From: Candidatus Saccharimonadales bacterium
GTDB lineage: Bacteria; Patescibacteriota; Saccharimonadia; Saccharimonadales; EFPC-124
Direction: 5' to 3'
Assembly: GCA_050730875.1 (NCBI GenBank)
Contig: JBOHNX010000001.1
Coordinates: 297,972 to 361,971 of the forward strand
DNA length: 64,000 bases
In this document: one piece after another, positions 27,829 through 48,151 of the stretch
How positions within the stretch are numbered: position 1 is the stretch's first letter
How the letters are laid out: the number at the start of each line of letters is the position of its first letter
Notes under the pieces: generated by a model
Database searches by the model: none
What the model saw: the letters and a program-made list of their open reading frames with translations, nothing else
What the model was told of the DNA's origin: nothing
Position numbers and translations under genes: made by a program

Positions 27829-27903
<75 letters not shown>

Positions 27904-27905: not shown

Positions 27906-29561
27906 TTAACAAGCTGGGATAGTGAAGCGGTCAAACACGGCTGACTGTAAATCAGCTGGCATTCGCCTTCGGGGGTTCGAATCCCTCTCCCAGCACCATT
28001 CTTGACAAATTGCCTCTTCGGAGGCTTTTTTCATCTGTTCAGGCATGGTTCTAACCTTTTCTAATTCGTCTCGTAGGCGTTTTGCAACGTTTCTGACAGG
28101 TATAAGCCAGCCGTTAGAGGTGATCTCTAGCTTTCCGTTCACGAGGACGGGGTTCTGACCAATCGCAAGCAGTATATCCTTCTTATTTCCCAAATCTCCG
28201 CTAACAAACTTCTCGCCAGCATAGGTTAGTTTTTCAAAGGTATCTGAGGCAACTTCATACCAGTTGCGAACTCTGTATGCTGTATCGGCTTGTTCGTCCT
28301 GTAATCTCTTCAAATCTGCTCTGAGGGCTATGTTTTTAGCCTTATAATCATCCTCTGCAATAAGTCCCCGAGTAACCATATCTAGCAACTTGTCTAGCTG
28401 CGCTTGTAGGCTAGTGATTGTATTATTTTGCATGACTTGAGTATTGTTGCGGTCTTCAACTTCTTGCTCCGCCATATCCCTAAATGCTTCCATTGCCCAA
28501 TCATAAAGCTTGGGGACTAACTCGTATCCATCTAGTAGATTAAGGACATCTTTGTAGAGTTCGTTTTCTTTCACATAGATACTCTTCTGGCTACAGCCCT
28601 TACGTTTGCCGGTGCAATGGTAGTACGTGTGAAGCCTAACATCTCCGCTTGCCAATTGTTTTCTCTTACTCTCTGCCGTAACCAGACAGTCACACTCACC
28701 GCAACGAATAAAGCCTCTCAATGCAAACTGTTTACGACTTGCCAGACGGGGCAGACCCCTCCTGCCTAACAAGACTTGTACTCTGTCGTACTCCTCCATA
28801 CTTATCATGGCTGGGAAGTCAGCTTTGTATAAGTTATCTGGGTCGTATGGATCAGGCACAAAGCCAGCGTTTCTTACATTACGAAAAAGGTTATAGAGGC
28901 TTGTGCGGGACATCGGTACGCCACCACTCCTACTACGCTTGACGGTTGTATAACCCCAGTCCTCAGTCATTATCTTCAATATGCTGTTAACGCTATATTC
29001 GCCGGTTAAGTAAAGATCAAAAGCCTTGCGGACTAGCGGAAAACGCTCAGGGTCTATAACTATCTTCTTATCCACGTTCAGAAACCCCTCGTGTGCTCTT
29101 CCTGTAAGCTGACCAAGTTGACGCTTCTTTTCGTTACCACGCCTTATATCTTTGCTCAGTTTTGCGGAAAAGTATTGCGACTGGCTCATAGTCATTTGCA
29201 ACATCATTATGCCCTCAGGAGAGTTATCAAAGTTGTAGCTTGCGAACCGTAAGTCTTTGATAATGCCTCTGGTAACACGATGACTTATTTCCGCTGCGTC
29301 TATAGCATTACGTGATAACCGATCAGGGTGCCATGCAATAACTCCGTCAATCTCTCCACTATCAAGCATGTCCATTATTTTCCTAAACTCCGGACGCTTG
29401 TAGGGTTCAAACGCACTCATACTCTCTTCAACATATTTAAGAATGTTAAGATCGCTGAATTGTTTTTGGATGTTGTCGTGTTGTGCCGCTTTTGAAAGCA
29501 CTTGACGTTCTACGTCCTCACTGGACTTTCTGATATAAGCTATGTAGCGTAATTTGTTCAT
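27906..29561 (-). CDS. Large serine recombinase (integrase). The last 46 codons read antisense through the terminator and tRNA-Tyr.
   Basis: Resolvase domain YIAYIRKSSEDVERQ...WHPDRLSRN, recombinase domain, zinc-ribbon CGECDC...YYHCTGKRKGC and coiled-coil. The tail WERDSNPRRR..ADLQSAVFDRF is a tRNA antisense translation. Confidence 0.9.
   Translation of the reverse strand: MNKLRYIAYIRKSSEDVERQVLSKAAQHDNIQKQFSDLNILKYVEESMSAFEPYKRPEFRKIMDMLDSGEIDGVIAWHPDRLSRNAIDAAEISHRVTRGIIKDLRFASYNFDNSPEGIMMLQMTMSQSQYFSAKLSKDIRRGNEKKRQLGQLTGRAHEGFLNVDKKIVIDPERFPLVRKAFDLYLTGEYSVNSILKIMTEDWGYTTVKRSRSGGVPMSRTSLYNLFRNVRNAGFVPDPYDPDNLYKADFPAMISMEEYDRVQVLLGRRGLPRLASRKQFALRGFIRCGECDCLVTAESKRKQLASGDVRLHTYYHCTGKRKGCSQKSIYVKENELYKDVLNLLDGYELVPKLYDWAMEAFRDMAEQEVEDRNNTQVMQNNTITSLQAQLDKLLDMVTRGLIAEDDYKAKNIALRADLKRLQDEQADTAYRVRNWYEVASDTFEKLTYAGEKFVSGDLGNKKDILLAIGQNPVLVNGKLEITSNGWLIPVRNVAKRLRDELEKVRTMPEQMKKASEEAICQEWCWERDSNPRRRMPADLQSAVFDRFTIPAC
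27913..27998 (+). tRNA. tRNA-Tyr (anticodon GUA), long variable arm, CCA encoded
   Basis: Acceptor GCTGGGA/TCCCAGC, anticodon stem GCTGA/TCAGC with loop CUGUAAA, a 14-nt variable arm, T arm GGGGG-TTCGAAT-CCCTC. Confidence 0.9.
28012..28031 (+). terminator. Intrinsic terminator of the tRNA-Thr/Tyr transcript
   Basis: GCCTC-TTCG-GAGGC followed by TTTTTT. Confidence 0.55.
28032..28055. repeat. Left copy of imperfect 24-bp direct repeat (candidate attL; 9-bp identical core GGTTCTAAC at 28047-28055)
   Basis: CATCTGTTCAGGCATGGTTCTAAC matches 39317-39340 CATTTGTTACAGTAAGGTTCTAAC at 18/24 positions, including a 9/9 core. Confidence 0.5.
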
Positions 29562-29592
29562 TGTTTTCTCCTAACAAAAAGGACGGCTGGTT

Positions 29593-29692
29593 GTTCACAC
29601 AGTCCATAGCACGAAGCCATTTCCTGATACCAGCCGCCCATTTTGGGTCGGGAAATAAAAACACTTCGTGCGTGTTTATGGCTTGTGTGAAC
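29593..29692. repeat. Imperfect inverted repeat upstream of the recombinase gene
   Basis: GTTCACACAGTCCATAGCACGAAG (29593-29616) versus the reverse complement of 29664-29692, GTTCACACAAGCCATAAACACGCACGAAG. Confidence 0.45.
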
Positions 29693-29729
29693 ATTTTTAT
29701 ATTAACTCGTTAATGTTTGATTGTACATA

Positions 29730-30245
29730 CTAGTCGCTTTGTTCTCTCATCAGCTCTACAACTTTTAAGTATCGCTTGGTAGGTTGACCACTATAGGTTC
29801 TAGTTCGTAAGTGCTTCATGTGTTTTTCGGCTCGTTCATATCTATCAAGCTCTCTCTGCATGGGGTAGATTGCTGAACGCCTGCTTCTTTTGCGTGATCG
29901 GTATGTAAGATTGTGACAGTGCCTACACCGATATTGTCCGATGAGGTACAGCTTGCCAACTCGCCGATTACATGTTGGACATAACATCCACCATCTTACA
30001 CCGCCGAAATAGCATGGTGTTTGAGTTAGGTGTATGGTTTGGGTTCGCTCCAAATTTTCATCCGGTGAATAGGTTATCTTTATTCTAGGACTCTCTCCTA
30101 AGATAACTAGCACATCCGCCGTATGGTCTTTTCCGTAAACCGTAGTCGTTAGCGTAGTCTGAAATCCATTTTTGAAGAAAATATTTTCGTTAGCCACGTA
30201 CACTAATGTATCTAATTCAGTCTTTCTTGCGTCGGATCGTGTCAT
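29730..30245 (-). CDS. Hypothetical zinc-ribbon protein
   Basis: CYFGGVRWWMLCPTCNRRVGKLYL..YRCRHCHNLTY (CxxC..CxxC) with a basic tail. Confidence 0.5.
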   Translation of the reverse strand: MTRSDARKTELDTLVYVANENIFFKNGFQTTLTTTVYGKDHTADVLVILGESPRIKITYSPDENLERTQTIHLTQTPCYFGGVRWWMLCPTCNRRVGKLYLIGQYRCRHCHNLTYRSRKRSRRSAIYPMQRELDRYERAEKHMKHLRTRTYSGQPTKRYLKVVELMREQSD

Positions 30246-30284
30246 AGAAAACGCCTATATACGAAATCATTAGCAATTCGTTTA

Positions 30285-30503
30285 TTAACCAGATACAGAA
30301 ACATCGTCTTTTTGCTCCATTTTCGTTAGTTTTAACTGTCTTTTACGTGTTTCTTTAGCTAGTGCAAACCTCATAATTGCTAGTCCTGCTTGCTGTGCTT
30401 GTTCGTCGCTGTAGTCCAGCCCAATATCTTTAAGCAATTCTTTTAAGGTGGTTAGACGTTCAGGCTTGAGTCGCATAGTAAGCTCCAAATATCGCCCGAA
30501 CAT
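30285..30503 (-). CDS. Small helical protein (possible DNA-binding/excision accessory factor)
   Basis: 72-aa ORF (or 63 aa from the Met at 30476). No motif recognised. The function given is a guess from size and context. Confidence 0.35.
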   Translation of the reverse strand: MFGRYLELTMRLKPERLTTLKELLKDIGLDYSDEQAQQAGLAIMRFALAKETRKRQLKLTKMEQKDDVSVSG

Positions 30504-30644
30504 CCTTACAACCTATATTTATCCTTAAACAGACCTTTATAAAGGTAAGTATCGTTATAGAGATACCCTTATATATACAGTTATCTATATATAGAGGCTG
30601 TTTAATATAAGAATATAGGCGGGGTTTCTTTTGTGTTTTCATAG

Positions 30645-30995
30645 CTAGAATGGCACGTCATCAAGGTTTATAGGTTCTTCTAGATCCTTGTCAGTTGGCT
30701 CGTACACTTTGTCGTGTTGTTTTGGTGACGGATCGTAGTCTCCGATGGCTTGTAGGCATTTCTCCTCAAGCCGTGCCCAGAAGTCGGTCTTTGTACTAAA
30801 TTCTGGCACGTGTATCCATTTATGGTTTATTTGCTGTGCGGGTGGTTGTACCCAATAACCCGAAGTGTTACGGTCAGATTCTCGGGCGGTAAAGCCGTCC
30901 ACATACATTCCAATGCTAGTTACATTTACTTTCAGGCGGTATCCTTTGTTAATCTGTCCCCGTACCTCAATCTCAATGCCGTACTCGTCATCCAT
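30645..30995 (-). CDS. Hypothetical protein
   Basis: Start chosen at the ATGGATGA overlap with the upstream stop (30988-30995). The ORF track start at 31031 is less likely. Confidence 0.45.
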   Translation of the reverse strand: MDDEYGIEIEVRGQINKGYRLKVNVTSIGMYVDGFTARESDRNTSGYWVQPPAQQINHKWIHVPEFSTKTDFWARLEEKCLQAIGDYDPSPKQHDKVYEPTDKDLEEPINLDDVPF

Positions 30996-31257
30996 TGCAA
31001 GCCTCCAGAATTTCATCCCGAATATGGTCAAGCTGTACGGCTAGGTTATCTATCAGTTCTTTTGCGTTTGAGTCTGCAAGATCAATAGAGACACTGGCAA
31101 GCTCATGTTTAGCTTGTTGCTCAAACATGTCATTTACTGCTAATCCAAGCCTTAGGTGGTAAGCAGGGCTCTTCCACTGGTCGCCAACCTTTCTCTGTAC
31201 CAAATATCCATACAACTTATGGTGTTGGATACGCCACTTTTTATAAATTATTGTCAT
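30988..31257 (-). CDS. Hypothetical protein
   Basis: 89-aa ORF, translationally coupled to the next gene. Confidence 0.45.
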   Translation of the reverse strand: MTIIYKKWRIQHHKLYGYLVQRKVGDQWKSPAYHLRLGLAVNDMFEQQAKHELASVSIDLADSNAKELIDNLAVQLDHIRDEILEACNG

Positions 31258-31273
31258 TTTGTCTTTCTGGCAT

Positions 31274-31298
31274 AAAAATGCCCGTTATGTTTACGGGC
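31274..31298 (-). terminator. Intrinsic terminator after the 31332..32051 gene
   Basis: Minus strand GCCCG-TAAACATAA-CGGGC followed by ATTTTTAT. Confidence 0.5.
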
Positions 31299-31331
31299 TT
31301 ATTTCTATAACTATAGGTAGCTGAAAAGTTT

Positions 31332-32051
31332 TCAGCCGTTTTCTAAGAGTTCAGGATCAATGTAGAAGATTAACTTCGTTATTTTTATAAGGTTTCTGCC
31401 ATCAGTAACCTCTTTAAGCTTCTGGTTTATTGCAGCGACATGATTTTTCGCTTGCTTACGTTGAAAGGGCTTAAGTTCATCGTTAATAACACCTCTAGAA
31501 TTCACAATTTTTCGCAGTGGGACACCATTTTTTAGGCTATTGACGTCATTGAAGAGAAGACGCATTGCACGTGCTTGCATAGGCTCATTTCTGGGATTGC
31601 CAAGCCTGTTCTTTTGACTAACTATTGCGACCTGTTTTCCATTAATAAACAGAGTCGCTGTATTAGCTTTGTAGCTCTGTGGTGTAAGCTTTCGCTCTGG
31701 GCTAAGGTTAGACTCGTAGAATTTACTAAAGCTGGGTAAAACCTCAATATGAAAATATGAGTCAAAGTAGTCAGGGTCTTCAATGACTTCATCACCTACC
31801 ATTTGGAGTAAAGTAGGGTGTTCGCGTTTTGGCTTGGGGATTTCGTCGTACGGTGGCTTTTTTACTGCGATGTGCCCAGAAGATTGTAGCTTATTCAGTG
31901 CATATCTAAATTGAGCATGGACGTCTCCATCAAAAACCGTGTAGACTGCCCCATAATCAAGTTTTATAGTGTTGCCATCTGTTAGTTCGTTTATGCTGTG
32001 GATACGCTCCACAAGCCATCGCATTCTCTCAGCCGAAGTTTTCAAAGCCAT
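31332..32051 (-). CDS. Hypothetical protein
   Basis: 239-aa ORF with no recognised motif. Confidence 0.5.
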   Translation of the reverse strand: MALKTSAERMRWLVERIHSINELTDGNTIKLDYGAVYTVFDGDVHAQFRYALNKLQSSGHIAVKKPPYDEIPKPKREHPTLLQMVGDEVIEDPDYFDSYFHIEVLPSFSKFYESNLSPERKLTPQSYKANTATLFINGKQVAIVSQKNRLGNPRNEPMQARAMRLLFNDVNSLKNGVPLRKIVNSRGVINDELKPFQRKQAKNHVAAINQKLKEVTDGRNLIKITKLIFYIDPELLENG

Positions 32052-32111
32052 ACTATGATTTTAGAGCAGTATCTACTCTTATCAAACCAATGTATGCAAT
32101 AATAATTGTTA

Positions 32112-32272
32112 AGTGGTAGCACCACTCATGATCTAGAGCCGCTCGCAAGAGAAGGTATGATCAAAAATCCGGTAAAGAATACTGAGCTAGTCGTTCAGGT
32201 ATCTTTACCGGTTGCACGCCGAAAGGTGTGTAGGGGTCGCAAGACTCCGCTTGGCGGCTAGCTTTTTGTTTG
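32112..32272 (+). ncRNA. Candidate structured RNA / 5' leader with multiple GNRA-capped hairpins
   Basis: Hairpins at 32112-32126, 32142-32151 (GCAA loop), 32169-32211 (~15 bp), 32215-32230 (CACGCC-GAAA-GGTGTG) and 32233-32248 (GGGGTC-GCAA-GACTCC), then a T-run at 32263-32271. Confidence 0.3.
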
Positions 32273-32307
32273 TCGCCGAACATTATTGACAGTAAAGGCG
32301 GCAACGA

Positions 32308-32985
32308 ATGAAAAAGCTTGGTTATTGGAAGTCACGTAAGGAATGGAAACGGCTAACTCAGGGCATGAGTCCCGATCAGGTCACCCGGCTCAAGCAAAGT
32401 CTTTCACAAGGCGACGAAGCTACAATTGCAGCTATTGCTGAAATACAAGCAGAGCAAAGAGAAGCCTTGCATGCTCAAGGCATAGATTACGGCAATACTA
32501 CACCCGAAATTGGGAAGGAAATACAGTGGAGTGATGTTTTGAGCATGGTGTTCCGTGTTATAGATTTTGATAGGAATGACACTACTGTAGACCTAGATGG
32601 TGGTGCAGAAACAGTAAAAGCAAAAAGCCAATTTCAACCTTATGGGTACCTACTTATTGAGTCACCCACGCTGAACCAACCTGTTGGATTACCGATAGTA
32701 CACAATAATGACTACTGGCTTGCTGCAAGCGTTTTTGATGATCCTGATGTTATTCGAGTTAAAGAGGAGCAAGGTAGAGAGCTCCTTGTTACCTATCAGC
32801 CAGAAAAAACTTTACGTGATGGACGCAACGGAAGTATGCAACACTGTTTGCACTTCGCACTTGTACCGTCAGGAACGTTAGAAAGATATTACGAAGACGA
32901 CAAACGAATGGCTAGACCAGAGCCAGAATTATTATTTGGAAAGTTTGTTTATAGTGGTGAAATAAGAGTGCGTATGGCAGCGTAG
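32308..32985 (+). CDS. Hypothetical protein
   Basis: 225-aa ORF with no recognised motif. Confidence 0.5.
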   Translation: MKKLGYWKSRKEWKRLTQGMSPDQVTRLKQSLSQGDEATIAAIAEIQAEQREALHAQGIDYGNTTPEIGKEIQWSDVLSMVFRVIDFDRNDTTVDLDGGAETVKAKSQFQPYGYLLIESPTLNQPVGLPIVHNNDYWLAASVFDDPDVIRVKEEQGRELLVTYQPEKTLRDGRNGSMQHCLHFALVPSGTLERYYEDDKRMARPEPELLFGKFVYSGEIRVRMAA

Positions 32986-33001
32986 CCCTATAATTAGCCC
33001 T

Positions 33002-33592
33002 ATGCAAAACAAACCTAACTCCACATTATTGTTCCGTCTTTCAGATGAACTCATAACCAACTTCACTTCTATAGATGGAAAACGACCTGTTTTCTATTGG
33101 TTCAGCGACTGTTATCACAGTCACATCTACGGAAACTCACCGGGAGCAGACTTTATGTACTTCTTCATTGTTGATCCGGCGAAAAGCGACGCCAAGTTAT
33201 TTACTCGTCACGACACAGGAGATTTTGGAAGCATGTGGGTTGATTACTCGCAGTATCTTGAAGCACGTAATGAAAATGAGAAACAAGGCATCAAGAAGTA
33301 CCTTGAGCCCGGTATCGTCTACTCATTTAGCGAACTTCAACCGGCTGTAGTCGGCAAGTTTGTGGACGGTTTCACGCTTTGGGCAAAGACAATAGACGAG
33401 TCAAAAGAGGTGACCTTTAGTTTGGTTGGGAATGGCAAGTTCAGGCGATTTGATGAGATACCAGAGCTAATAGACCTACTGCCCGAGATTGCTAGTGCCG
33501 TGCCGGTTATGCAGCCTACATCCGAGCAAGTCGCTGATCCGTCTAGCTTCTGGGCTGCCGATACATCCAATCAGGGTCGGATGTGGCTATAA
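33002..33592 (+). CDS. Hypothetical protein
   Basis: 196-aa ORF with no recognised motif. Confidence 0.5.
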   Translation: MQNKPNSTLLFRLSDELITNFTSIDGKRPVFYWFSDCYHSHIYGNSPGADFMYFFIVDPAKSDAKLFTRHDTGDFGSMWVDYSQYLEARNENEKQGIKKYLEPGIVYSFSELQPAVVGKFVDGFTLWAKTIDESKEVTFSLVGNGKFRRFDEIPELIDLLPEIASAVPVMQPTSEQVADPSSFWAADTSNQGRMWL

Positions 33593-33595
33593 TTC

Positions 33596-34249
33596 CTATA
33601 CTAAGTGTTCAGTGCCTTTGACCACATCAACCACCTTACCGGCGACTTGATAATGCTGAAAGTCTTCGTTAGCGATAATAATCGGAGGATAAGGATAGTG
33701 CGATTCAGACTGCAGTACTACCCGTTGGTGGGCATCATCCCTCTGGAACTTCTTAATATTAGCCATGCCGTCAATGATGGATACAATATAGTCATTTTTA
33801 TCCGGTACGTATGGGTCACGTTTTTCGACCAGTACATAATCACCGTCTTCAATTGTTTTACCGTTGATGTTTGCTCTGTTCATTGAATCACCACGAGCGA
33901 CTAACGAGTATACGCCTTTTGTGGTGCTAATTTTGGTGGTGCTAGGAGAGAGTGTCAAATAACCCTGAATAACATCAGATGCGAAGCGAGTAGCTTCACC
34001 ACAATCAGCTTCGCCGAGAACCGGTATTGATAGTACATTGTTTTGGAGGAGACCCGGACTTTTTGTTGATACCACCAACGAGCCGTCGGTCTTCCGGGAT
34101 AGGTAGCCGTTCTTAATCAGCTGGCCGATATGGTGCTGGACTTGTGAGGCGTGTTTGCAGCTCACTCGCTCACCAATTTGGCGGTATGACATACTACCGA
34201 GGTCAACCAGAGAACCGAGACTTAACAGCCTTTTTTGTACTTCATGCAT
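33596..34249 (-). CDS. LexA/CI-like repressor (wHTH plus S24 peptidase domain)
   Basis: N-terminal wHTH (YRQIGERV..ASQVQHHIGQLIKNGYL). S24 catalytic Ser in ARGDSM and Lys in ANIKKF. Start moved to the Met at 34249, downstream of the predicted promoter. Confidence 0.8.
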   Translation of the reverse strand: MHEVQKRLLSLGSLVDLGSMSYRQIGERVSCKHASQVQHHIGQLIKNGYLSRKTDGSLVVSTKSPGLLQNNVLSIPVLGEADCGEATRFASDVIQGYLTLSPSTTKISTTKGVYSLVARGDSMNRANINGKTIEDGDYVLVEKRDPYVPDKNDYIVSIIDGMANIKKFQRDDAHQRVVLQSESHYPYPPIIIANEDFQHYQVAGKVVDVVKGTEHLV

Positions 34250-34260
34250 CTTCACCCCTG

Positions 34261-34298
34261 ATTGTATCAGGTTTCTGGACACTGTACAATCCTGTACA
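34261..34298 (-). promoter_or_regulatory. Repressor promoter overlapping tandem CTGTACA operators
   Basis: Minus strand TTGTAC (34289-34284), 17 nt spacer, TACAAT (34266-34261). CTGTACA at 34282-34288 and 34292-34298, each containing the TGTACA palindrome. Confidence 0.4.
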
Positions 34299-34529
34299 TT
34301 TACAATGCGCTACCGGTATGGTATTGTTGAACTTAACCTAGCTATAAAACGCAAAATTCTTTTGTCGAGGGTAGTTACGGGGAGCGGCGCAAGCCACGTT
34401 CGTTAAAAAGGCGGACTATGAAAAAGCACCGGCTTTTGGCCGATGCTAGCGTACACCGTTGGTACCGAGTACGCTTCTTAGTCTACTGTAACCAATCATT
34501 AATGGCCAGACTAAGGAGGAATAACACCT

Positions 34530-34763
34530 ATGGCTCACAAACCTAACATTCATACGACCTACAGCAAACAGGCCAGTAACTGGCGTAACGTCACCGAAGG
34601 CGCAACCCGCCCGGGCAAGACATACGAGACCAAGCAGCAGGCTCAGGCGGCCGGACGTGATATGGCTAAAAGCCACCACGTTGAACACTTGATTCACAAT
34701 AAAGATGGTGAAATTGGCTCCCGTAACAGCTACGGCCATGACCCTAGAAATGTAAAGGGGTAA
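34530..34763 (+). CDS. DUF2188 family protein
   Basis: W.V..EGA.R....Y.TK.QA..AGR..AK......L.IH..DG.I......YG.DP pattern. RBS AAGGAGG. Confidence 0.7.
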   Translation: MAHKPNIHTTYSKQASNWRNVTEGATRPGKTYETKQQAQAAGRDMAKSHHVEHLIHNKDGEIGSRNSYGHDPRNVKG

Positions 34764-34766
34764 ATC

Positions 34767-35252
34767 ATGTCTGCTGATACTGCACTTACGATCACTCAGA
34801 TCGTGTGGCCACTACTGGGCGGCGTATTTGCCGCGTCGGTTTGGCTTCGCTTCTTTCACAAGAAGGAGCGTCGGCTCTTCAAGAACATCCAGCGACCTGT
34901 TGCTGTTATAGCCACCGACGACAAACCTATGACTCATGAAGTTCAGCTGCTCAAGCGTGTCGGCTTCTTCAACATCGGTACTCCATCTGCGGATGGACGA
35001 GCGAAGGACTTACTTAACGGCAATCGTCTTGTAGTTATTGGCTACAGTCCTAACTCCAAAATCTTCAAAGAGGTGTTCGCTGCGGCCGCACAGCGAGAGA
35101 TGCCAGTAATAGTCTATGCTGCACCCGGTGAGATTAGGCCGGAAGACATTAAGCTTTTACAGGGCTATTCTCATCACTCAATGTGTAATACCCCGCTACG
35201 CCTTATATCTGATGTATTTGCCATGATGAGCACGTACCCGGAGGACAAGTAG
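34767..35252 (+). CDS. Single-pass membrane protein with cytoplasmic alpha/beta (flavodoxin/TIR/receiver-like) domain; candidate effector
   Basis: TM segment ITQIVWPLLGGVFAASVWLRFF, then alternating beta/alpha segments (VAVIATDD, LVVIGYSP, MPVIVYAAPG). The fold assignment is a guess. Confidence 0.45.
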   Translation: MSADTALTITQIVWPLLGGVFAASVWLRFFHKKERRLFKNIQRPVAVIATDDKPMTHEVQLLKRVGFFNIGTPSADGRAKDLLNGNRLVVIGYSPNSKIFKEVFAAAAQREMPVIVYAAPGEIRPEDIKLLQGYSHHSMCNTPLRLISDVFAMMSTYPEDK

Positions 35253-36272
35253 ATGACCGATGAAGCGATAAATCAAGTAGTTAACAAGTACGTAAAAGAC
35301 AACCTGTCTCCTAAGCCCGCCCAGCGAGACTTCATTACCGAAAAATACGAAGAACTTAGGGGTTTTCTGGGAGGTCGCTGCTTTCAGTCAGGCTCTTACG
35401 CCCGCTACACAGCAATCGATCCTGTGCATGACTTGGACGTCATATATCCCGTAAGTGATGCCTCTGTTAAGGATAATCCCTCTCTGTTGCTGCGGAACCT
35501 GCTAGCAAACTTACAGCTGAAGTACAAAAACTCAACAACTAAAATCAAGCGGATATATGCACAGACCCACTCTGTAACCATCGAGTTTGAGGGATCACCT
35601 GAAGAAACTTTCAGCATTGATGTTGTGCCCGCCATCGAACTAGCAGAAAAAAATGATTATGAGCAGCCGCTGTATCAGGTGCCTGAAATTGTCAAACTAA
35701 ACAAGCACAACCGCGAGGAACGGTATAAAAACGCTTCAACTAATCCTATTGGTTGGATCAAATCTGACCCCCGTGGTTATGTACAAGCTGCTTACGAATT
35801 GAACGATTTAAATGCGAATTTTCGACACGCCACCAAATTACTCAAGGGCTGGAGACATGCTTGCAAGATCGCTTACGGGGATAGTTTTCGTCTCAAATCT
35901 TTTCATCTTGAGCAGATAGTTTATGCATACTTCGTCGAAAATCCCGGATGTACCACCGTAGAGGCTGTAATTGATTGCTTGGCCGCCTTGCCGGGCGACA
36001 TAAACGAACCACAGTTTACGGATCGTGCGGATGCTACTCGTTATATTGACGAGTACGTTGCCGGGCTAAGCCGGGATGAACGACAGTTAATCTTGCGCCT
36101 ACAGGCTGAAGCTTTCTCTTGCGTAAGGCAGATACCTGCCTCGACCGACGAGCAAGCAATAATTCACTGCTTAGAGTCACTCATAACCGTCGACAAGCAA
36201 AGCTCTATGACACCTGTATTCGCCGCACCATCACCACGTTCGGTTGCACCCCATCAACCTTGGGCGTGCTGA
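35253..36272 (+). CDS. CD-NTase/SMODS-like nucleotidyltransferase (pol-beta superfamily)
   Basis: GS motif QSGSYARYTAI, DxD in HDLDVIY, third acidic residue in FSIDVVPA, then GWIKSDPRGY...ATKLLKGWRH, typical of cGAS/DncV-like enzymes. Confidence 0.7.
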   Translation: MTDEAINQVVNKYVKDNLSPKPAQRDFITEKYEELRGFLGGRCFQSGSYARYTAIDPVHDLDVIYPVSDASVKDNPSLLLRNLLANLQLKYKNSTTKIKRIYAQTHSVTIEFEGSPEETFSIDVVPAIELAEKNDYEQPLYQVPEIVKLNKHNREERYKNASTNPIGWIKSDPRGYVQAAYELNDLNANFRHATKLLKGWRHACKIAYGDSFRLKSFHLEQIVYAYFVENPGCTTVEAVIDCLAALPGDINEPQFTDRADATRYIDEYVAGLSRDERQLILRLQAEAFSCVRQIPASTDEQAIIHCLESLITVDKQSSMTPVFAAPSPRSVAPHQPWAC

Positions 36273-36283
36273 GCGAGCATGGC

Positions 36284-37012
36284 ATGTGGACTAAGAGCGA
36301 TCTAGCTTGGCTTAGTAAGAACTACCCTGAACTCAAGCAAAAGCAGCCCAATACTATTGAGGGCAGACTGACTTTTCAGATGCTACGAGCCAACGGGCTT
36401 TACGTGGTAAATCCCTCAGCTAAACAAATTCAGGATCTTTCGCCTCCAGACTACCTTTACTTGTGCGACACGTACAAAATCCGGATTGCATGGCCTAAAG
36501 ATGCCCGTTTTCCGACAGCCCACGAAACCGGAGGCAAACTAGCGGCAACAGCGAAACGACTTAATAAAAATCTGCTGGATATGCATCAGTACCAAGAAGA
36601 TGGCAGCCTTTGCTTGGCTGCAACTATGCAGCTAGAGCGTACCTTTCGTAAAAAGTTCAAGCTTGATGCGTTTGTTGAAGAGTTCATGATTCCTTATCTA
36701 TTTGCGCAGACCCACTATGCTAAGACCGAGGAATGGCTGTGGGGTGAACTAGAGCATGGATCTTGGGGTCTTTTACAATGGCTTGGCCGGGAAAAACAGT
36801 ACGATGATGCAGATACTTTTGCGACCTACGCCTATGTTAAAAGTCAGATAGGTGAAGATGCTACCCATAAACTTTTGAAGATTCGACCGCGTGGTCACTA
36901 CGCTTGTCTCTGCGGATCAGGTAAGAAAACACGCGACTGCCATCCCGACGTCCAACAAGGCATAATTAGGCTTCGGGGTGCGGTAAGTCGTCATATTATT
37001 AAGCTCAATTAG
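36284..37012 (+). CDS. E2/UBC-like protein with C-terminal SEC-C zinc motif
   Basis: HQYQEDGSLCLAA resembles the UBC HPN...G.ICL active-site loop. C-terminal CLCGSGKKTRDCH is the SEC-C motif (compare SecA CPCGSGKKYKQCH). An alternative GTG start at 36266 overlaps the upstream stop. Confidence 0.55.
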   Translation: MWTKSDLAWLSKNYPELKQKQPNTIEGRLTFQMLRANGLYVVNPSAKQIQDLSPPDYLYLCDTYKIRIAWPKDARFPTAHETGGKLAATAKRLNKNLLDMHQYQEDGSLCLAATMQLERTFRKKFKLDAFVEEFMIPYLFAQTHYAKTEEWLWGELEHGSWGLLQWLGREKQYDDADTFATYAYVKSQIGEDATHKLLKIRPRGHYACLCGSGKKTRDCHPDVQQGIIRLRGAVSRHIIKLN

Positions 37013-37027
37013 TTTTACAATGGGTGT

Positions 37028-38221
37028 ATGTTCACTCACCTAAAAGACCGGCAATATTACGAAGACCTATATGATAAATTTACTGTGGAGTCAGCTCGTC
37101 GTGGTATGGTTTACTACGATGATTTTTATGCCGACTTTGAAAACAAACTTCCGAAGGGTGAGAAGATTGATAAGCCCGGCAACGCTTTCCTATTGAATGT
37201 CTTCTATATGGAGACTGTAGGAAACGAGCTGCTTCGCCGCTACGAAAAGCGTGGTGAACAAATCAGTGAATGGATTGAGAGAGACGAAGCGAAAAATGAA
37301 CAAATATCATCAGCTCGACTTTCTGAAGAGCCTCGCTGTCAACATTGTGGCAAGCAAGGGCTACGAATTACAGACAAATCACTCATGCATAGGAGTAAAA
37401 GCTACAAAATCGGTGACCCTGAGGAAGTGCTTTTCATGTTGCGATGTCCTCATTGTGACAAGAACTGCGCATTTTGGGAGGACGGTACAGCGTGGAAGGT
37501 TAAACCAACTATATGTCCGAGGTGTAAGTCTGAAGTAACGCACAAGACCACAAAAACCAAGAAGACCATTACGATTACATACACATGCATCTCCTGTAAA
37601 CATAGCTTTAAGGACAAACTGGACTTATCCAGCGAGAAAGAGAAACCTGACCCCGATTTTGACAAAGATCGCATCCACTTCTGTCTCGTAGACGAGGAGT
37701 TTCGCGAACGACTCTTCAAAATGAGGCATGACTTTATAGAGATGGCTCGGCTCGGCAAGGAGTTCAAAGAAAAGAAAGACAACAAGCACATATACGATGC
37801 CGTAAAAGAAATGAAGAAGCCAAAGATTGCCGAATTGTCTGCCATACTTGCTCCAGCACTTGAAAAGGCCGGTTACATTGAGTTTAGTCTTGATAAACCA
37901 GAAATGGGTAAAGATGTATTCATCGGCTTTAACTGCCTTGATTGTAAAAGCGACCGCGGCGACTATGATAGCGAGAAGACTCTGAAGAAAACTGTAGAAA
38001 AAGCCCTGATTAGTACTAACTGGCGGTTAATGAGCGAGGGTATCCATTACCGACTTGGTTACCTGAACGGGCGGTTGCGTGCATATGAGCGTGAAGAAGA
38101 TCTCAAGAATCTTGTAATAAAAGATAAGAGGCTAAAACCCAAAAGCAGTCATGCTACTAAGCCAGACAAGGATAATTCATGGCGGCTTAAAGCCAACGAT
38201 GGAACTGACATCCTCTTATAG
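37028..38221 (+). CDS. Multi-zinc-ribbon protein of unknown function
   Basis: CQHC..(x34)..CPHC and CPRC..(x21)..CISC, plus a later CLDC, within a K/E-rich helical region. Confidence 0.5.
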   Translation: MFTHLKDRQYYEDLYDKFTVESARRGMVYYDDFYADFENKLPKGEKIDKPGNAFLLNVFYMETVGNELLRRYEKRGEQISEWIERDEAKNEQISSARLSEEPRCQHCGKQGLRITDKSLMHRSKSYKIGDPEEVLFMLRCPHCDKNCAFWEDGTAWKVKPTICPRCKSEVTHKTTKTKKTITITYTCISCKHSFKDKLDLSSEKEKPDPDFDKDRIHFCLVDEEFRERLFKMRHDFIEMARLGKEFKEKKDNKHIYDAVKEMKKPKIAELSAILAPALEKAGYIEFSLDKPEMGKDVFIGFNCLDCKSDRGDYDSEKTLKKTVEKALISTNWRLMSEGIHYRLGYLNGRLRAYEREEDLKNLVIKDKRLKPKSSHATKPDKDNSWRLKANDGTDILL

Positions 38222-38408
38222 ACGGGGGTGCTATTTTTCTGGGTTAAGTGAGATGGTACCTAAGCGCATCTAGGGGGTGTGGGGTGTTGCCTCAGAAATA
38301 ATTTTAAGAGCACAGCCACCCCTGTTAGTTTGCTTGCCTTTCTCTGTTCTAAACTGTAGAATAATCAAGTAGCATTGTTCTGACCTTGCAAAGAACAGTG
38401 CACCAATG

Positions 38409-38436
38409 AAAAAGCCCACCTCTAGGTGGGTCTTTT
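38409..38436. terminator. Bidirectional intrinsic terminator
   Basis: AAAAAG-CCCACC-TCTA-GGTGGG-TCTTTTC, with A-run and T-run on both sides. Confidence 0.6.
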
Positions 38437-38545
38437 CATTGATTGAGGGTTCGAACGCCCGAGGGAAGCCTTCGGGGTGCGAACTGCCTGTGGCAGTTCG
38501 CAAGGAAATCTTCCGATATCCTACACCACAGACTAGAGCATTAAG
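38437..38545 (-). ncRNA. Candidate small structured RNA containing a degenerate tRNA T-arm-like segment
   Basis: Minus strand has GGAA-GAT-TTCC, a perfect TGCGAACTGCC-ACA-GGCAGTTCGCA hairpin, CCCGAAGG-CTTC-CCTCGGG and GCGTTCGAACCCTC, ending at the 38409-38436 terminator. Confidence 0.25.
38478..38502. repeat. Perfect palindromic hairpin, copy 1 (core GAACTGCC-NGT-GGCAGTTC)
   Basis: TGCGAACTGCC TGT GGCAGTTCGCA. A near-identical core occurs at 48730-48754. Confidence 0.6.
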
Positions 38546-38656
38546 CACGCCAGAACTTATAGTAAAATATTAAAGATAGCTGCACTATTTCCGACATCAA
38601 TCGTAGAGTTTATTCTTCTAAATTAATAGACTTTAAATAAATGATGGGGGTACACC

Positions 38657-39271
38657 ATGCGCAAGCTTGTAGTCTGTAATATTATGTCGCTTGACGGTTA
38701 TTATGAAGGTCCTGGCAAAAACGTTATGGATCTGTTTGCATATCGTTTTGGAGATTACCCGGATGATGATAGCTTTGACAAATACAACGCTGAGCGCCTG
38801 AGTGCGGCGGACATTATGCTCGTGGGTCACAAATCATACGAGGGCTTTGTAAGCTACTGGCCAACTTTGGCTGATACAGCTGATGCTAATCCGGCTGAGC
38901 GTCAAGTTTCAAAGTATATGAATGCTGTGGAAAAAGTAGTTGTTTCTAGCAGCCTACCCGTTAAAGCATCAAACCCTTGGCGTGATAAAACACGTGTCAT
39001 TAGTCCGGGGGAGTCTCACAACGAAATAGCAAAACTCAAGAAGCAAGATGGCAAAGACATAGTTATTTTTGCTAGCCGTCTTCTTTGGAACGATCTTATA
39101 GCGCATGGCTTGGTTGACGAGCTTCATCTTATGATTAGCCCAGTGATTTTGAACGACGGTACACCGATATTTACTAGCGACCCAAAGGTTTCTCTGAATC
39201 TACTTGAAGCGCGTACATGGGACAAGTCAGGTCTGGCACTAGTCAGGTACAAAGTATTCTCTAAGAGATAA
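38657..39271 (+). CDS. Dihydrofolate-reductase-family protein (RibD C-terminal domain type)
   Basis: MRKLVVCNIMSLDGYYEGP...IVIFASRLLWNDL...LVDELHLMISPVILNDGTP pattern. Confidence 0.7.
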   Translation: MRKLVVCNIMSLDGYYEGPGKNVMDLFAYRFGDYPDDDSFDKYNAERLSAADIMLVGHKSYEGFVSYWPTLADTADANPAERQVSKYMNAVEKVVVSSSLPVKASNPWRDKTRVISPGESHNEIAKLKKQDGKDIVIFASRLLWNDLIAHGLVDELHLMISPVILNDGTPIFTSDPKVSLNLLEARTWDKSGLALVRYKVFSKR

Positions 39272-39316
39272 TGAGTGAATGCGCGTGGGAAGACTGTTAT
39301 TATAAACCTCTCACAA

Positions 39317-39340
39317 CATTTGTTACAGTAAGGTTCTAAC
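39317..39340. repeat. Right copy of the 24-bp direct repeat (candidate attR; core GGTTCTAAC at 39332-39340)
   Basis: See 28032-28055. Confidence 0.5.
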
Positions 39341-39433
39341 GTCGTAGATCAAGCTGCTTGAGCAGATTTTGTACTTTTTGTGCAAGTTCTTCAAAGCTCA
39401 TATCTGGAATTATAGCGTAACTATTCAGATATA

Positions 39434-40093
39434 TTACATCACCACTTTACGTGGCTGACGAACGCGTTTTGGCGCTTGAGCTGGGACGATGATTTTTTGG
39501 ATTTTCTTGCGGATGGTTTCGGCGAGTTCATCTTCGCCGGCGCGTTCGTAAGCGTCTGCAAGGATTTTAAGCGATTGCGGATTAGGCTCTAATTCGACAG
39601 CTTGCTCGAGTGCTGCAACCATTTTTTTGCGGTCGCCAAGCTTCTCTTGTACTTTTGCGTAAGCAATGTAGCGTGCGGCGAGGTCGTTTTCCATCTCGAT
39701 CGCTTGTTCAAATGCAATCGCTGCTTTTTCGTACTGACCTGTTTCGTAGTAAATAAGGCCGACGTTGTGTAAGCTTGAAGCGCTTGGCTCGAGGCTCTGG
39801 GCGATTTCGAAACACTCGATTGCATCGTTAAAAGCGCGTTGCTTGGCGTATAAAATACCTAAACGGTTATAAGCAGCCGAGTTGCGTTCATCGACGCGCA
39901 AAATAGTTAGGAGAGCTTTCTCGGCTCGTAGGTATTTCTTTTCACGTAAACCTTCTTGGGCAATCTGCCACAGTTTATCGAGGCGATCACTAATACGCGA
40001 TGGAAGTTCCTCCTCTTTAATGTCGCTCGTGTCGCGGTAGTAGAGCCATAGGACTAGCACAGCAAACGCAAGCAATAGTAGCAAGGTAATCAT
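39434..40093 (-). CDS. Membrane-anchored TPR-repeat protein
   Basis: N-terminal TM followed by several 34-aa TPR-like repeats (A..YN.LG..Y....F..AI..FE.A..L.P). Confidence 0.7.
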   Translation of the reverse strand: MITLLLLLAFAVLVLWLYYRDTSDIKEEELPSRISDRLDKLWQIAQEGLREKKYLRAEKALLTILRVDERNSAAYNRLGILYAKQRAFNDAIECFEIAQSLEPSASSLHNVGLIYYETGQYEKAAIAFEQAIEMENDLAARYIAYAKVQEKLGDRKKMVAALEQAVELEPNPQSLKILADAYERAGEDELAETIRKKIQKIIVPAQAPKRVRQPRKVVM

Positions 40094-40141
40094 AAGTCAC
40101 AGGTTAGTATAACAGCTCCCAAGCTTATCTCAAAAGCTACC

Positions 40142-40969
40142 TCAGTAGTTAACAAACAGCTCAGTCACCTGCGCCTTGGCATTGCCATTTTGCGCTAGGC
40201 GGCTCAGCGCTACCTCTAGTCCTTCGGCAAGCTTGTGCCAGCGTTTTTGCGTAGCGTTGGCAAGCATTTGTAGCTTTACCATCTGCGCCATTGCCTCCAG
40301 TACGGCAATTAATTTGACGCGGTCTTTACAGAGGTCATTAATGCGCTGGAGGCGGTCGTATGTCGATGCCCCTAGTAGTTGCTTGGCTTCTTGCATGAGC
40401 TGTTGCTGCTCATCCCGAAATGCTTCATCGGCTATAAGTCGAGCCGCGGTTGCTGGGCGGCCACTAGCGATAAAGAGCATTTTGGTGAGATTCTGCCCTG
40501 CAATACCCTCGTTTTGCGCTTGGAGCCAGCCGGTCAGGTCTTTTTCGCTCACTCGTGGGAGATTTACCGTTTGAACACGCGAAGCGATGGTTGGCAACAG
40601 CACCGTAGGTGTTGTGGCGGTCAGTATAAACAAAACGCCGTCCCGTGGCTCTTCCAGAAGTTTTAGGAACGCGTTTTGCGCTTCGATACCCATTGTTTCG
40701 GCATGGTCAATAACAACCACTTGCCGATCTTCAGTGCGGCTTCTGGTTCTTTGATACAGACTCCTTACGACATCTATCCCAATACTTCCCTTTTCGTCAG
40801 GAGTCACGGTGCTAATGTGTGACGCACTTGTCAATAAAGACGCTACAACATGAGCAACGGTGTATTTGCCGATCCCCGTAGGACCGGTGATTAGGAGGGC
40901 ATGTGGCGGGTTTGCCACAAGGGCGCGAAGCTGCACTTTTGTCTGAGGGTTGATGAGTAGTTCGTCCAT
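40142..40969 (-). CDS. holB: DNA polymerase III delta' subunit
   Basis: HALLITGPTGIGK P-loop, VVVIDHAE, AQNAFLKLLEEP and sensor TIASR. Confidence 0.8.
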   Translation of the reverse strand: MDELLINPQTKVQLRALVANPPHALLITGPTGIGKYTVAHVVASLLTSASHISTVTPDEKGSIGIDVVRSLYQRTRSRTEDRQVVVIDHAETMGIEAQNAFLKLLEEPRDGVLFILTATTPTVLLPTIASRVQTVNLPRVSEKDLTGWLQAQNEGIAGQNLTKMLFIASGRPATAARLIADEAFRDEQQQLMQEAKQLLGASTYDRLQRINDLCKDRVKLIAVLEAMAQMVKLQMLANATQKRWHKLAEGLEVALSRLAQNGNAKAQVTELFVNY

Positions 40970-40976
40970 ACTTGCC

Positions 40977-41873
40977 TTATTGTAACGAATTTAAGAACTT
41001 CTGTAGCTCGGGCGGCAGCGGCGCACTAAATGTTTTGCGTTCCCGTGACGGTAAGGTAATTTCTAGCTCGGCAGCGTGCAAAAACATACGCGGCAATCCT
41101 TTTGCCTTGTGACCGTATAAGGCGTCTCCGGCGATTGGGCAGCCTAAATAGTGCATATGCACCCGAATTTGATGTGTTCGCCCTGTAAGGGGCTTAAGCC
41201 GCACGAGACTGTAATCTCTAAAATAGTTTTCGACTTCGTAGGCTGTTTCTGCCGGCTTACCACTGGCACCTACCCGGAATGTCTGCGGTTTTTTAGGGTT
41301 GCGCTCGATTGGGAGCCGTATGATGGCTGCATTTTCGGCTGGCTGGCCTTCTACAAGCGCCAGATAGGTCTTTTTGGCTTTACGAAGACTAAATTGTCGC
41401 TGTAACCAGCGTTTTGCTTCGTTATTTTTGGCAGCGATCAGCACTCCAGAAGTTTCACGATCTAACCTATGCACAATGCCTGGCCGATTGCTTTCGGGGC
41501 CATCAGTAGTTTGCGGGCGCATAAAGTCTGCAACCGTGAATTCTGGATTAAATGCGCCTTTGGCATGCGTGAGGACGCCGGCTGGTTTATTAATAACTAT
41601 TACGTCGTCATCTTCGTATAGTACCGGGAGTGTTTGGGTGCTGAAATCTGGCGACTCAGGCAGCAAAACAGTGATGACATCGCCTTCGGATATAGTTTGG
41701 CTAGGTTTTACGGGAGCATCATGAAGTAAAACGACACCTTGCTGGCAGAGTTTTTGCCAAGAGCTTCGTGAGTACTCTGGGTAGGCGCGCGCCAGAAAAC
41801 TATCAGCGCGCTCCCCCGTTTGGTCGGCTACGAATTTCTGCTGCATGGTTTTATGGTCGTGGGCGTAAGCCAA
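40977..41873 (-). CDS. rluD: RluA/RluD-family pseudouridine synthase
   Basis: S4-like N-terminus, catalytic HRLDRETSGVL, and LTGRTHQIRVH. Confidence 0.85.
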   Translation of the reverse strand: MAYAHDHKTMQQKFVADQTGERADSFLARAYPEYSRSSWQKLCQQGVVLLHDAPVKPSQTISEGDVITVLLPESPDFSTQTLPVLYEDDDVIVINKPAGVLTHAKGAFNPEFTVADFMRPQTTDGPESNRPGIVHRLDRETSGVLIAAKNNEAKRWLQRQFSLRKAKKTYLALVEGQPAENAAIIRLPIERNPKKPQTFRVGASGKPAETAYEVENYFRDYSLVRLKPLTGRTHQIRVHMHYLGCPIAGDALYGHKAKGLPRMFLHAAELEITLPSRERKTFSAPLPPELQKFLNSLQ

Positions 41874-43077: not shown

Positions 43078-43106
43078 GGTGGTTATTATATAGAGTTGCC
43101 GTGGTT

Positions 43107-44237: not shown

Positions 44238-44256
44238 CGCTTCCCTCCTTTTTCAT

Positions 44257-44283
44257 AAAAAAACCACCTAGCAGGTGGTTTAG
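44257..44283 (-). terminator. Intrinsic terminator 20 nt upstream of the DAHP-synthase start (attenuator terminator)
   Basis: Minus strand AAACCACCT-GCT-AGGTGGTTT followed by TTTTAT, then RBS AAGGAGGG and ATG at 44237. Confidence 0.65.
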
Positions 44284-44306
44284 TTTTTTAGCTGTCGAAG
44301 TGTCTT

Positions 44307-44390
44307 TTATATACTATGCCAGCCATGCACCAAACCACCACCTGTGCCGTGGAACCAAGAGTAGAAATTATTCATATTTAACGTTTTCAT
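44307..44390 (-). CDS. Candidate 27-aa leader peptide MKTLNMNNFYSWFHGTGGGLVHGWHSI
   Basis: ATG lies 9 nt downstream of the predicted -10 (near-leaderless). Contains the aromatic codon cluster Phe-Tyr-Ser-Trp-Phe. Lies between a promoter and a terminator. Confidence 0.4.
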   Translation of the reverse strand: MKTLNMNNFYSWFHGTGGGLVHGWHSI

Positions 44391-44398
44391 GCTTATTC

Positions 44399-44427
44399 AT
44401 CATACGCAAATTACTTTAGCTGGTCAA
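44399..44427 (-). promoter_or_regulatory. Candidate sigma70-type promoter of the leader/DAHP synthase/trpS unit
   Basis: Minus strand TTGACC (44427-44422), 17 nt spacer, TATGAT (44404-44399). Confidence 0.5.
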
Positions 44428-44437
44428 TTATATACAC

Positions 44438-44468
44438 ATAAAAAGCACTGGATTTTTCAAGCCAGTGC
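44438..44468 (-). terminator. Intrinsic terminator after rpsI
   Basis: Minus strand GCACTGG-CTTGAAAAAT-CCAGTGC followed by TTTTTAT. Confidence 0.5.
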
Positions 44469-44489
44469 CTCCATGGGCATTAAAGTGCC

Positions 44490-44888: not shown

Positions 44889-44889
44889 A

Positions 44890-45324: not shown

Positions 45325-45327
45325 GGG

Positions 45328-45771: not shown

Positions 45772-45774
45772 GAT

Positions 45775-46704: not shown

Positions 46705-46736
46705 GGCGTTTTTCTCCTTAGCCTTCTTACAAAGTC

Positions 46737-47354: not shown

Positions 47355-47357
47355 ACC

Positions 47358-47747: not shown

Positions 47748-47761
47748 ATTCCAAGCTACTC

Positions 47762-48148: not shown

Positions 48149-48151
48149 AAC

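Follow-up and report, generated by a model that had tools for sequence, protein, structure and literature searches.

Why does a recombinase gene run, with its reading frame open, through the whole of a tRNA gene on the opposite strand, and what becomes of its product when the DNA that carries it moves? The question is raised by an open reading frame (ORF) in a stretch of 64,000 nucleotides from Candidatus Saccharimonadales bacterium (assembly GCA_050730875.1, contig JBOHNX010000001.1; hereafter the window), denoted int here, which belongs to an integrated element abutting a tRNA-Tyr gene. We assign a probability of roughly 0.85 to the reading, derived from sequence comparison, that this ORF is the integrated-state form of a large serine recombinase (LSR) that would mobilize a 10.4-kb island (27999-38405) carrying a cyclic oligonucleotide-based antiphage signaling system (CBASS), recombining at the GCACCA 3' end of tRNA-Tyr and having its attP site within its own gene. 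An earlier reading of these letters, made without database searches (the sequence-only reading), had proposed that integration swaps the C-terminus of the recombinase; the principle holds, in that attP lies in the 3' end of int, whereas the core position, the tails and the element boundaries that it gave do not. The genes at the left junction, in window coordinates, are the following.

27906-29561, minus strand: int, integrated form; residues 1-523 are element-encoded, residues 524-551 (27909-27992) come from antisense tRNA-Tyr, and the stop codon is at 27906-27908
27913-27998, plus strand: tRNA-Tyr(gta), called by ARAGORN; the integration target, the 3' half of its acceptor stem and T-arm being the B arm of attB; the gene is intact after integration
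27829-27903, plus strand: tRNA-Thr(ggt), the upstream neighbour of tRNA-Tyr

The int product is an LSR, as identified by a Resolvase domain (PF00239, residues 7-151, E = 6.6e-20) and a recombinase zinc ribbon (Zn_ribbon_recom, PF13408, 30.5 bits) that score above the Pfam cut-offs, together with a Recombinase domain (PF07508) that falls just under its cut-off (20.5 vs. 21.1 bits) and is recorded for most homologues. The conserved Ser/Arg active-site residues R11, S13, R81 and R84 show no variation among 46 aligned sequences, and the closest 120 homologues, which are 56-95% identical to Int, come from Saccharibacteria and other Patescibacteria. The AlphaFold2 (AF2) model of one homologue, P0002, contains long helices at 356-403 and 409-451, the pattern of a zinc ribbon with an inserted coiled coil, and Foldseek matches this model to 9y66, 9dxh, 9rah, 9iu2 and 4kis (SPbeta, PhiC31, Bxb1 and LI integrases). 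The nearest phage LSRs in INPHARED are at most 26% identical to Int, a scan of IMG/VR found no relatives of the family, and exact-protein look-ups returned no record of the 551-aa Int or of the Spherulin4-like flank gene. The 551-aa ORF is the integrated (attL) form; as the sequence-only reading held, and as ORF translation and the ARAGORN call bear out, it runs antisense through the whole of tRNA-Tyr. The overlap takes up its last 29 codons, and its stop codon falls in the spacer ahead of tRNA-Thr.

The boundaries of the element are marked by a hexamer, GCACCA, which stands at the tRNA-Tyr 3' end and recurs at 38400-38405.

27993-27998, plus strand: attL core GCACCA, tRNA nucleotides 71-76, comprising two bases of the acceptor stem, the discriminator and CCA; int codons W522 and C523 when read on the minus strand
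38400-38405, plus strand: attR core GCACCA; contig L003 starts here, and unitig L089 ends 30 nt (k-1) past 38399
38349-38399, minus strand: P arm of attP, an orphan at attR; 16 codons (TVLCKVRTMLLDYSTV) plus a stop, which supply the Int C-terminus in the joined P-P' form
38414-38437, plus strand: B' arm, the displaced native tRNA-Tyr terminator as found by terminator scan; a 7-bp stem followed by a T-run, folding at -18.1 kcal/mol (z = -5.2)
38657-39271: RibD_C gene, host DNA to the right of the element
39434-40093: TPR gene, host DNA to the right of the element

The element is thus the segment 27999-38405, 10,407 bp long including one copy of the core. The strongest evidence for this delimitation comes from contig L004, which encodes P0002 and in which nucleotides 625-3652 match window positions 30990-27993 (76.6% identity) and nucleotides 3647-3822 match 38405-38232 (83% identity), the two matches overlapping by exactly GCACCA. 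In a three-way alignment, L004 is identical to the attL side over the 46 nt up to TGGTGC and from there on, at once, follows the attR side. Judged from this alignment, the contig carries a P-P' (attP-type) junction, and the switch of partner at TGGTGC places the strand exchange within the 6-bp core. The P arm at 38349-38399 is 83% identical to the L004 sequence that follows the core, and the same type of peptide ends P0002, P0015, P0040 and P0042.

A second line of evidence is provided by unitigs of the Logan sample SRR27067773 (L089 and L003), 100% identical to the window, such that the same strain is present there. L003, which was reached through the exact TPR protein and was the only hit again when the RibD_C protein was looked up, covers window positions 38400-50093 and begins at 38400, whereas L089 corresponds to 27969-38429, that is, the element with 30 nt (k-1) on each side; Logan assemblies use k = 31, and the overlap between L089 and L003 is 30 nt. 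Breaks of this type would arise if the assembly graph had another path leading into the B' sequence, and an empty site appears to be the simplest path of this kind, which suggests that occupied and empty sites coexist in the sample. Because there is no unitig break at 38405, the pattern is unlike that of an assembled attP path, which would have broken there. L090, the contig of the left flank in this sample, already ends within tRNA-Thr and is not informative.

The 3' part of tRNA-Tyr has no duplicate in the window, which places the crossover at the extreme end of the tRNA and not inside it. Together with this result, the junctions lead to the following scheme. The attB site would be the extreme 3' end of tRNA-Tyr, with strand exchange within GCACCA, and attP would fall in the final ~20 codons of int. 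With P joined to P', in a circle or at a tandem junction, Int would be 539 aa long and end in ...QEWC-TVLCKVRTMLLDYSTV; on integration, the last 16 residues would stay behind at attR and the ORF would run on for 28 codons through antisense tRNA-Tyr, giving 551 aa. The exchange touches no part of the tRNA beyond the shared 6 bp, so that the tRNA remains intact. The predicted attB junction joins ...TCCCTCTCCCAGCACCA to ATGAAAAAGCCCACCTCTAGG and the predicted attP junction joins ...CTTGCAAAGAACAGTGCACCA to TTCTTGACAAATTGCCTCTTCGG.

The sequence-only reading had placed the crossover elsewhere, in a 9-mer, GGTTCTAAC, at 28047 and 39332, so that the element would be 11.3 kb long, the DNA to the left of 28047, including the hairpin next to the tRNA, would be host DNA, and the excised Int would end VRT-LL-stop at ~507 aa; the junction would then read ...ACAGTAAGGTTCTAAC joined to CTTTTCTAATTCG.

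28047-28055, plus strand: the proposed core GGTTCTAAC, codons V503-R504-T505; a DNA motif conserved in the family (GTTAGAAC on the int strand) and not the crossover
39318-39385 (9-mer at 39332-39340), minus strand: the second GGTTCTAAC site, host DNA between RibD_C and TPR

The 9-mer is indeed present twice in the window, with no third copy, the match extends to 18 of 24 nucleotides between the second site and 28032-28055, and the GC content is slightly low up to ~40 kb. Such a repeat is, however, at chance level (at least two copies in 8 of 100 shuffles of the window), and its second copy sits between two host genes, outside the element, which ends at 38405 and not at 39340. The L004 contig joins the window ends at GCACCA, 49 bp to the left of the proposed core, and L089 and L003 break at 38399/38400. 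Furthermore, the 18 residues that follow VRT (MPEQMKKASEEAICQEW, residues 506-523) are conserved in the closest 120 homologues beside seven tRNA types and hence cannot be host DNA, and none of the homologues ends in VRTLL; the only one that ends near VRT, P0074, has a protein sequence that resembles a 1-nt frameshift of the normal sequence. We therefore regard a crossover in GGTTCTAAC as extremely improbable. The second site might have another origin: a family DNA profile of the int 3' end (nhmmer) gives its second-best match in the window at 39318-39385 on the minus strand (E = 0.034), and at the protein level a test for a relic gave no signal there, such that the segment may be what decay has left of an older int 3' end, or a chance match.

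The crossover at GCACCA is placed in a broader context by a scan of one genome per species, which yielded 80 loci, nearly all from Saccharibacteria or other Patescibacteria; the 61 non-redundant loci with a tRNA antisense at the int 3' end form the set for the counts of register, target and terminator. The CCA of the tRNA is an in-frame TGG (Trp) codon of int in 60 of these 61 loci, and seven tRNA types are targeted (Gly in 14 loci, Gln in 10, Tyr in 9, Ser in 8, Trp and Asn in 7 each, Arg in 6). Orphan P-arm tails of the form W-x-x-(V/I)(L/I/V)-x-(E/K/Q)-VRT-... were found 6-11 kb upstream of int in 15 loci, where they mark attR; the attL and attR of these loci have in common only TGG and 3-6 further nucleotides. 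The shared block is thus 6 bp in our element and 6-9 bp across the 15 loci, in keeping with LSRs, which have short att sites, a 2-bp crossover and little identity between attP and attB. In locus L085 (10001-21644), two elements are arranged in tandem and the inner int reads into the P arm of the next element, so that a P-P' junction may stem from a tandem array as well as from a circle.

L022, L005, L012, L017, L018 and L027 likewise contain either tandem arrays, in which two recombinases follow one another, or more than one orphan P arm (two to three). These arrangements point to repeated integration at the same tRNA, with decayed older copies.

Comparison of C-termini shows which part of the tail is exchanged. 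In all of the closest 120 homologues, ...EKVRT is followed by (M/L)PQQIQKASEEAxRxxW, and the tails diverge only past the Trp (W522, invariant in the 46-sequence alignment); given that the homologues share the residues up to this Trp, MPEQMKKASEEAICQEW belongs to the recombinase. Accordingly, of the 46-aa tail that the sequence-only reading took to be host-encoded, the first 18 residues are encoded by the element and the remaining 28 (524-551) are indeed tRNA antisense; the long tail is kept beside different tRNAs in its first part and differs in the rest, and the displacement of the crossover leaves intact the conclusion that integration alters the ORF. The joined form of 539 aa ends in ...QEWC followed by TVLCKVRTMLLDYSTV (16 aa), a conserved peptide that takes the place of the short excised isoform for which no counterpart was found among the 120, and the integrated form of 551 aa ends in ...QEWC followed by WERDSNPRRRMPADLQSAVFDRFTIPAC (28 aa of antisense tRNA-Tyr). 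As read from these sequences, the swap between the two tails is real.

Among the closest 120 homologues, 73 have antisense-tRNA tails (e.g., ...RDSNPR..., ...RRESNSHRLLGRQAY and ...HVESNHDLRFWRP), 27 end within three residues past the Trp, seven are of the P-P' type with the peptide xVLxEVRTxLLxYSxx, and 13 fall outside this scheme (four other, nine unparsed by the pattern). Short tails (WCRV-stop) also result from insertion at tRNA-Tyr, the T-stem of the tRNA in L002 having an antisense TAG. Integrated tails range from 2 to 86 aa and have no common feature. Two homologues, P0096 and P0107, carry a tail of a third kind past the conserved Trp, which is acidic (...YEVRQILDEDIEE...) and distinct both from antisense tRNA and from the usual P-arm peptide.

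Does the swap serve a function? The sequence-only reading supposed that it might change the stability or activity of the recombinase and that antisense transcription over the tRNA might result. Mx8, in which Int is a tyrosine recombinase and the target is also a tRNA gene, is the obvious point of comparison. Its attP lies within the int coding sequence, and integration produces a recombinant gene with another 3' end, so that the C-terminus of Int is altered; the protein remains active with changed properties (PMC6070905). An evolved switch of this kind, as in Mx8 IntP/IntX, would leave the anatomy described above unchanged and add only a function: the 16-aa tail would complete a C-terminal helix that is required for, or tunes, attP x attB integration or Int stability, and its loss would lower or redirect the activity and stabilize the integrated state. 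Besides the Mx8 precedent, such a switch is favored by the joined-form tail past VRT, which keeps (A/M/L)LLxYS(T/I)(V/A) and the position of the stop codon in nine diverged elements, with synonymous changes in Leu and Thr codons and a ratio of nonsynonymous to synonymous polymorphism (pN/pS) of 0.47, and by the AF2 model of the joined form of P0002, in which a helix at 490-509 is followed by a break at RTLP and by a confident, continuous helix at 514-543 (predicted local distance difference test, pLDDT, ~90) that has the crossover codons in its middle. Nevertheless, the most conserved part of the tail, xVLxEVRT, has frozen codons (GTT AGA), which is consistent with a constraint at the DNA level (Int on the P arm), and the lack of any shared feature in the integrated tails implies that the integrated form of Int tolerates any tail or escapes selection; the evidence for a switch consists of sequence comparison and a structural model. 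The joined-form tails end in STV, SIA or STA, with no obvious ssrA-like tag. On balance, a switch appears possible but somewhat doubtful, and we would guess that the swap is chiefly a side effect of the position of attP at the end of the tRNA, perhaps with an Mx8-like change in activity.

The constraint on the DNA itself is conspicuous. Up to codon -21, synonymous positions of int vary freely, whereas between codon -20 and W522 (~60 nt) they hardly change; V503 is encoded by GTT in 95% and R504 by AGA in 87% of the sequences, compared with 30% and 14% in the body of int, so that the 9-mer singled out by the sequence-only reading is part of a conserved DNA block. A distal portion of the frozen region, CAACAGAT...GGTTAGAACC (window 28033-28056), lies beyond the hairpin and T-run described below, and its GTTAGAAC directly repeats the P-arm motif at 38377-38384; this P-arm motif is GTCAGAAC, read as GTTCTGAC on the plus strand.

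The arrangement of the two tRNA-side arms suggests how the site might be recognized. Counted from the T of TGG, the P arm has GT(T/C)AGAAC at positions 21-28 and the B arm has the antisense T-loop (A/T)TCGAAC at positions 16-23, and the best match between the arms, with only those on the tRNA side compared, is at a shift of +5 (83 of 150 positions, 55%, vs. a background of ~25%). In solved LSR complexes, the motif for the zinc-ribbon domain (ZD) lies at 16-24 in attP and at 11-19 in attB (PMC3783163). These sequence patterns suggest that the ZD recognizes the T-loop common to all tRNAs, and a change from one tRNA to another would then be easy to explain: in the B arm the ZD would contact TTCGAAC of the T-loop and in the P arm, at a distance from the center that is greater by 5 bp, a mimic of it, GT[T/C]AGAAC, which encodes the 'VRT' of the tail; this mimicry would let the family hop from one tRNA type to another. 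The same geometry would center the site on tRNA nucleotides 71-72. A scan for dyad symmetry around a central dinucleotide suggests the same center, with its best position at TGGTG/C, which is weak and palindromic for some targets.

Integration has a further consequence for the tRNA gene: it removes the native terminator, which would be displaced by 10.4 kb, and hence creates a need for a replacement. A candidate is located inside int.

28012-28031, plus strand: element-supplied intrinsic terminator for tRNA-Tyr (predicted); GCCTC-TTCG-GAGGC (28012-28025) plus T6, antisense in int codons K513-A519 (KKASEEA)

This segment, which has the sequence features of an intrinsic terminator, was detected by terminator scan and folding; the hairpin starts 13 nt past tRNA-Tyr and folds at -11.1 kcal/mol (z = -3.4). 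The sequence-only reading had assigned this terminator to the host, but it belongs to the element and encodes conserved Int residues. At an empty site, tRNA-Tyr would be trailed by ATGAAAAAGCCCACC and not by the GCCTCTTCGGAGGC hairpin. Across the family, a hairpin with a T-run is present within 60 nt after the tRNA in 41 of the 61 loci, compared with 22 of the 2739 windows that served as controls, all on the antisense strand of these int genes; the B' arms of other loci also hold a hairpin and T-run, their native terminators. The stems are specific to clades (GCCTC/GAGGC, AGACCCTC/GAGGGTCT, AGAGCCT/AGGCTCT, ACAGCCG/CGGCTGT, GCGCGG/CCGCGC and others), and the peptides that they encode vary alongside (KASEEA, KDSEES, KAPEGA, KSLLEA, KTAAFSAV). 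In an ungapped alignment of 27 sequences, RNAalifold found compensatory changes in three of four consensus pairs; it recovers only these four pairs because the register of the hairpin shifts by 1 nt between clades, and the scan of individual sequences with controls was used instead. From these observations we infer that the hairpin would act as a replacement tRNA terminator, dual-coded with Int.

The conserved hairpin could instead be a P' half-site bound by Int, or a terminator or stabilizer of the int mRNA. It lies 14-27 bp from the core, inside a normal LSR half-site (PMC3783163), the int strand folds as well (-9.9 kcal/mol), and the frozen synonymous sites reach past the hairpin. Half-site binding, however, requires neither the pairing nor the downstream T-run, which persist while the stem sequences vary from clade to clade; this T-run belongs to the tRNA strand and not to the int strand; and the loss of the native terminator on integration calls for a substitute. 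A half-site or mRNA element thus seems unlikely, and the function of a replacement tRNA terminator is preferred.

Several points count against the combined reading of an LSR with attP in its own gene, a tail swap and an embedded terminator. The unitig breaks are indirect evidence, and neither an empty attB nor a circular attP of this exact element was recovered, two exact-pattern scans of metagenome contigs for the empty attB and B' flank having given no hits. The P-P' junction of L004 was found in a relative, with an integrase of 79% identity (76.6% at the DNA level), and could be a tandem junction comparable to that in L085. No canonical hairpin with T-run is present in 20 of the 61 loci, including all those that target Ser-tRNA. 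Selection on the joined tail at the protein level is modest, with the pN/pS of 0.47 to be compared with 0.72 after the stop codon. Finally, both dyad symmetry and ZD geometry favor nucleotides 71-72 as the center, which for Tyr and Gly targets is the palindromic GC, whereas LSRs normally avoid a palindrome at this position.

The remainder of the element consists of the cargo and a few accessory genes.

34767-35252, plus strand: transmembrane (TM) effector of the CBASS (PADLOC, E = 2.5e-21)
35253-36272, plus strand: CD-NTase, the CBASS cyclase (PADLOC, E = 1.9e-84; Pfam SMODS)
ending at 37012, plus strand: E2-like protein of the CBASS (PADLOC, E = 5.8e-27)
34530-34763: DUF2188 gene
33596-34282, minus strand: S24 peptidase, a CI/LexA-like repressor (PF00717, E = 9.9e-15; PHROG transcriptional repressor)
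29730-30245, minus strand: 171-aa ORF beside int, found by tblastn in 11 fetched loci
30285-30503, minus strand: 72-aa ORF beside int, found by tblastn in 29 fetched loci

The genes at 34767-37012 on the plus strand are a short type II CBASS, as predicted from these profile matches. Excision by LSRs requires a recombination directionality factor; the 171-aa and 72-aa ORFs, which have no Pfam match, are candidates for such a factor or for regulators. The element is not a phage, and a search for phage structural genes in it found none. Two further loci of the scan deserve mention. In L013 (11279-11725, on a 1.1-Mb Saccharimonadia contig), the int 3' end is frameshifted, with two high-scoring segment pairs in different frames, and is probably a decaying copy or a sequencing error. 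In L017 (11587-11695), int abuts a tRNA-like sequence (TGGTGGGGCTGGATGGAATCGAACC...) that received no ARAGORN call and may be an intron-containing or otherwise unusual tRNA; such tRNAs reportedly occur in Patescibacteria.

How does this architecture compare with known systems? As in Mx8, attP lies within the int coding sequence and integration yields a new int 3' end; unlike in Mx8, the enzyme is a serine and not a tyrosine recombinase and only 16 codons are exchanged, and no embedded tRNA terminator is reported for Mx8. With the LI/A118, Bxb1, PhiC31 and SPbeta integrases, Int shares the resolvase, recombinase and coiled-coil-bearing zinc ribbon domains, short att sites of minimal identity and, possibly, a ZD motif whose distance from the center is 5 bp larger in attP than in attB. 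It differs from them in that it targets the tRNA 3' end (theirs is a protein gene or an intergenic site), in the overlap of attP with its own stop region and in the Patescibacteria host. Integration-dependent immunity of mycobacteriophages is mentioned in PMC4929511. In these phages, which employ a tyrosine integrase, the repressor gene is cut and a degradation tag is removed. There, too, attP is inside a coding region and integration changes the C-terminus of a protein; here, by contrast, int itself is altered and the S24 repressor gene lies at least 4-5 kb from either att site.

In tRNA islands with tyrosine integrases, a long copy of the tRNA 3' part is present as a direct repeat. Our element resembles these islands in its location at a tRNA 3' end, the adjoining int, the intact tRNA gene and the tandem arrays of its family, and differs from them in that no more than 6-9 bp are shared, in line with what serine chemistry predicts. 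With regard to serine integrases (S-Ints), a 2020 survey states that they are 'not known for targeting tRNA genes' and that the 14 of 297 cases in which an S-Int island was predicted at a t(m)RNA gene need experimental proof (Mageeney et al., TIGER; PMC7192596), and a minority of Prochlorococcus tycheposon-type elements carry an LSR. Unlike our family, the TIGER islands and tycheposons are reported without a described CCA-Trp codon, attP in int, tail swap or embedded terminator. In our incomplete coverage of the literature, we found no published description of an LSR architecture with CCA as a Trp codon and attP in int. The use of tRNA genes by LSRs is barely documented, and a location of attP in int with a changed C-terminus is already known from Mx8.

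The most far-reaching formulation of these observations would be a Patescibacteria-wide LSR family that uses the tRNA 3' end (CCA, acceptor stem and T-loop) as attB, with the ZD on the T-loop and attP in its own gene, in which integration both remodels the C-terminal helix, as a sensor of the integrated or free state that biases directionality or stability, and installs a dual-coded tRNA terminator; we put this forward as a speculative proposal that is, as a whole, doubtful. Serine integrases are leading tools for the insertion of large DNA, and a family that hops over seven tRNA types in one register, with CCA as a Trp codon, represents a natural series for learning how LSR specificity changes. 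One and the same stretch of DNA encodes a conserved helix on one strand and, as inferred here, would supply a tRNA terminator on the other, and the principle that integration rewrites the integrase is extended from tyrosine to serine recombinases. Genetic manipulation is difficult in Saccharibacteria and other Patescibacteria, for which the sites used by this family may offer ready-made landing sites.

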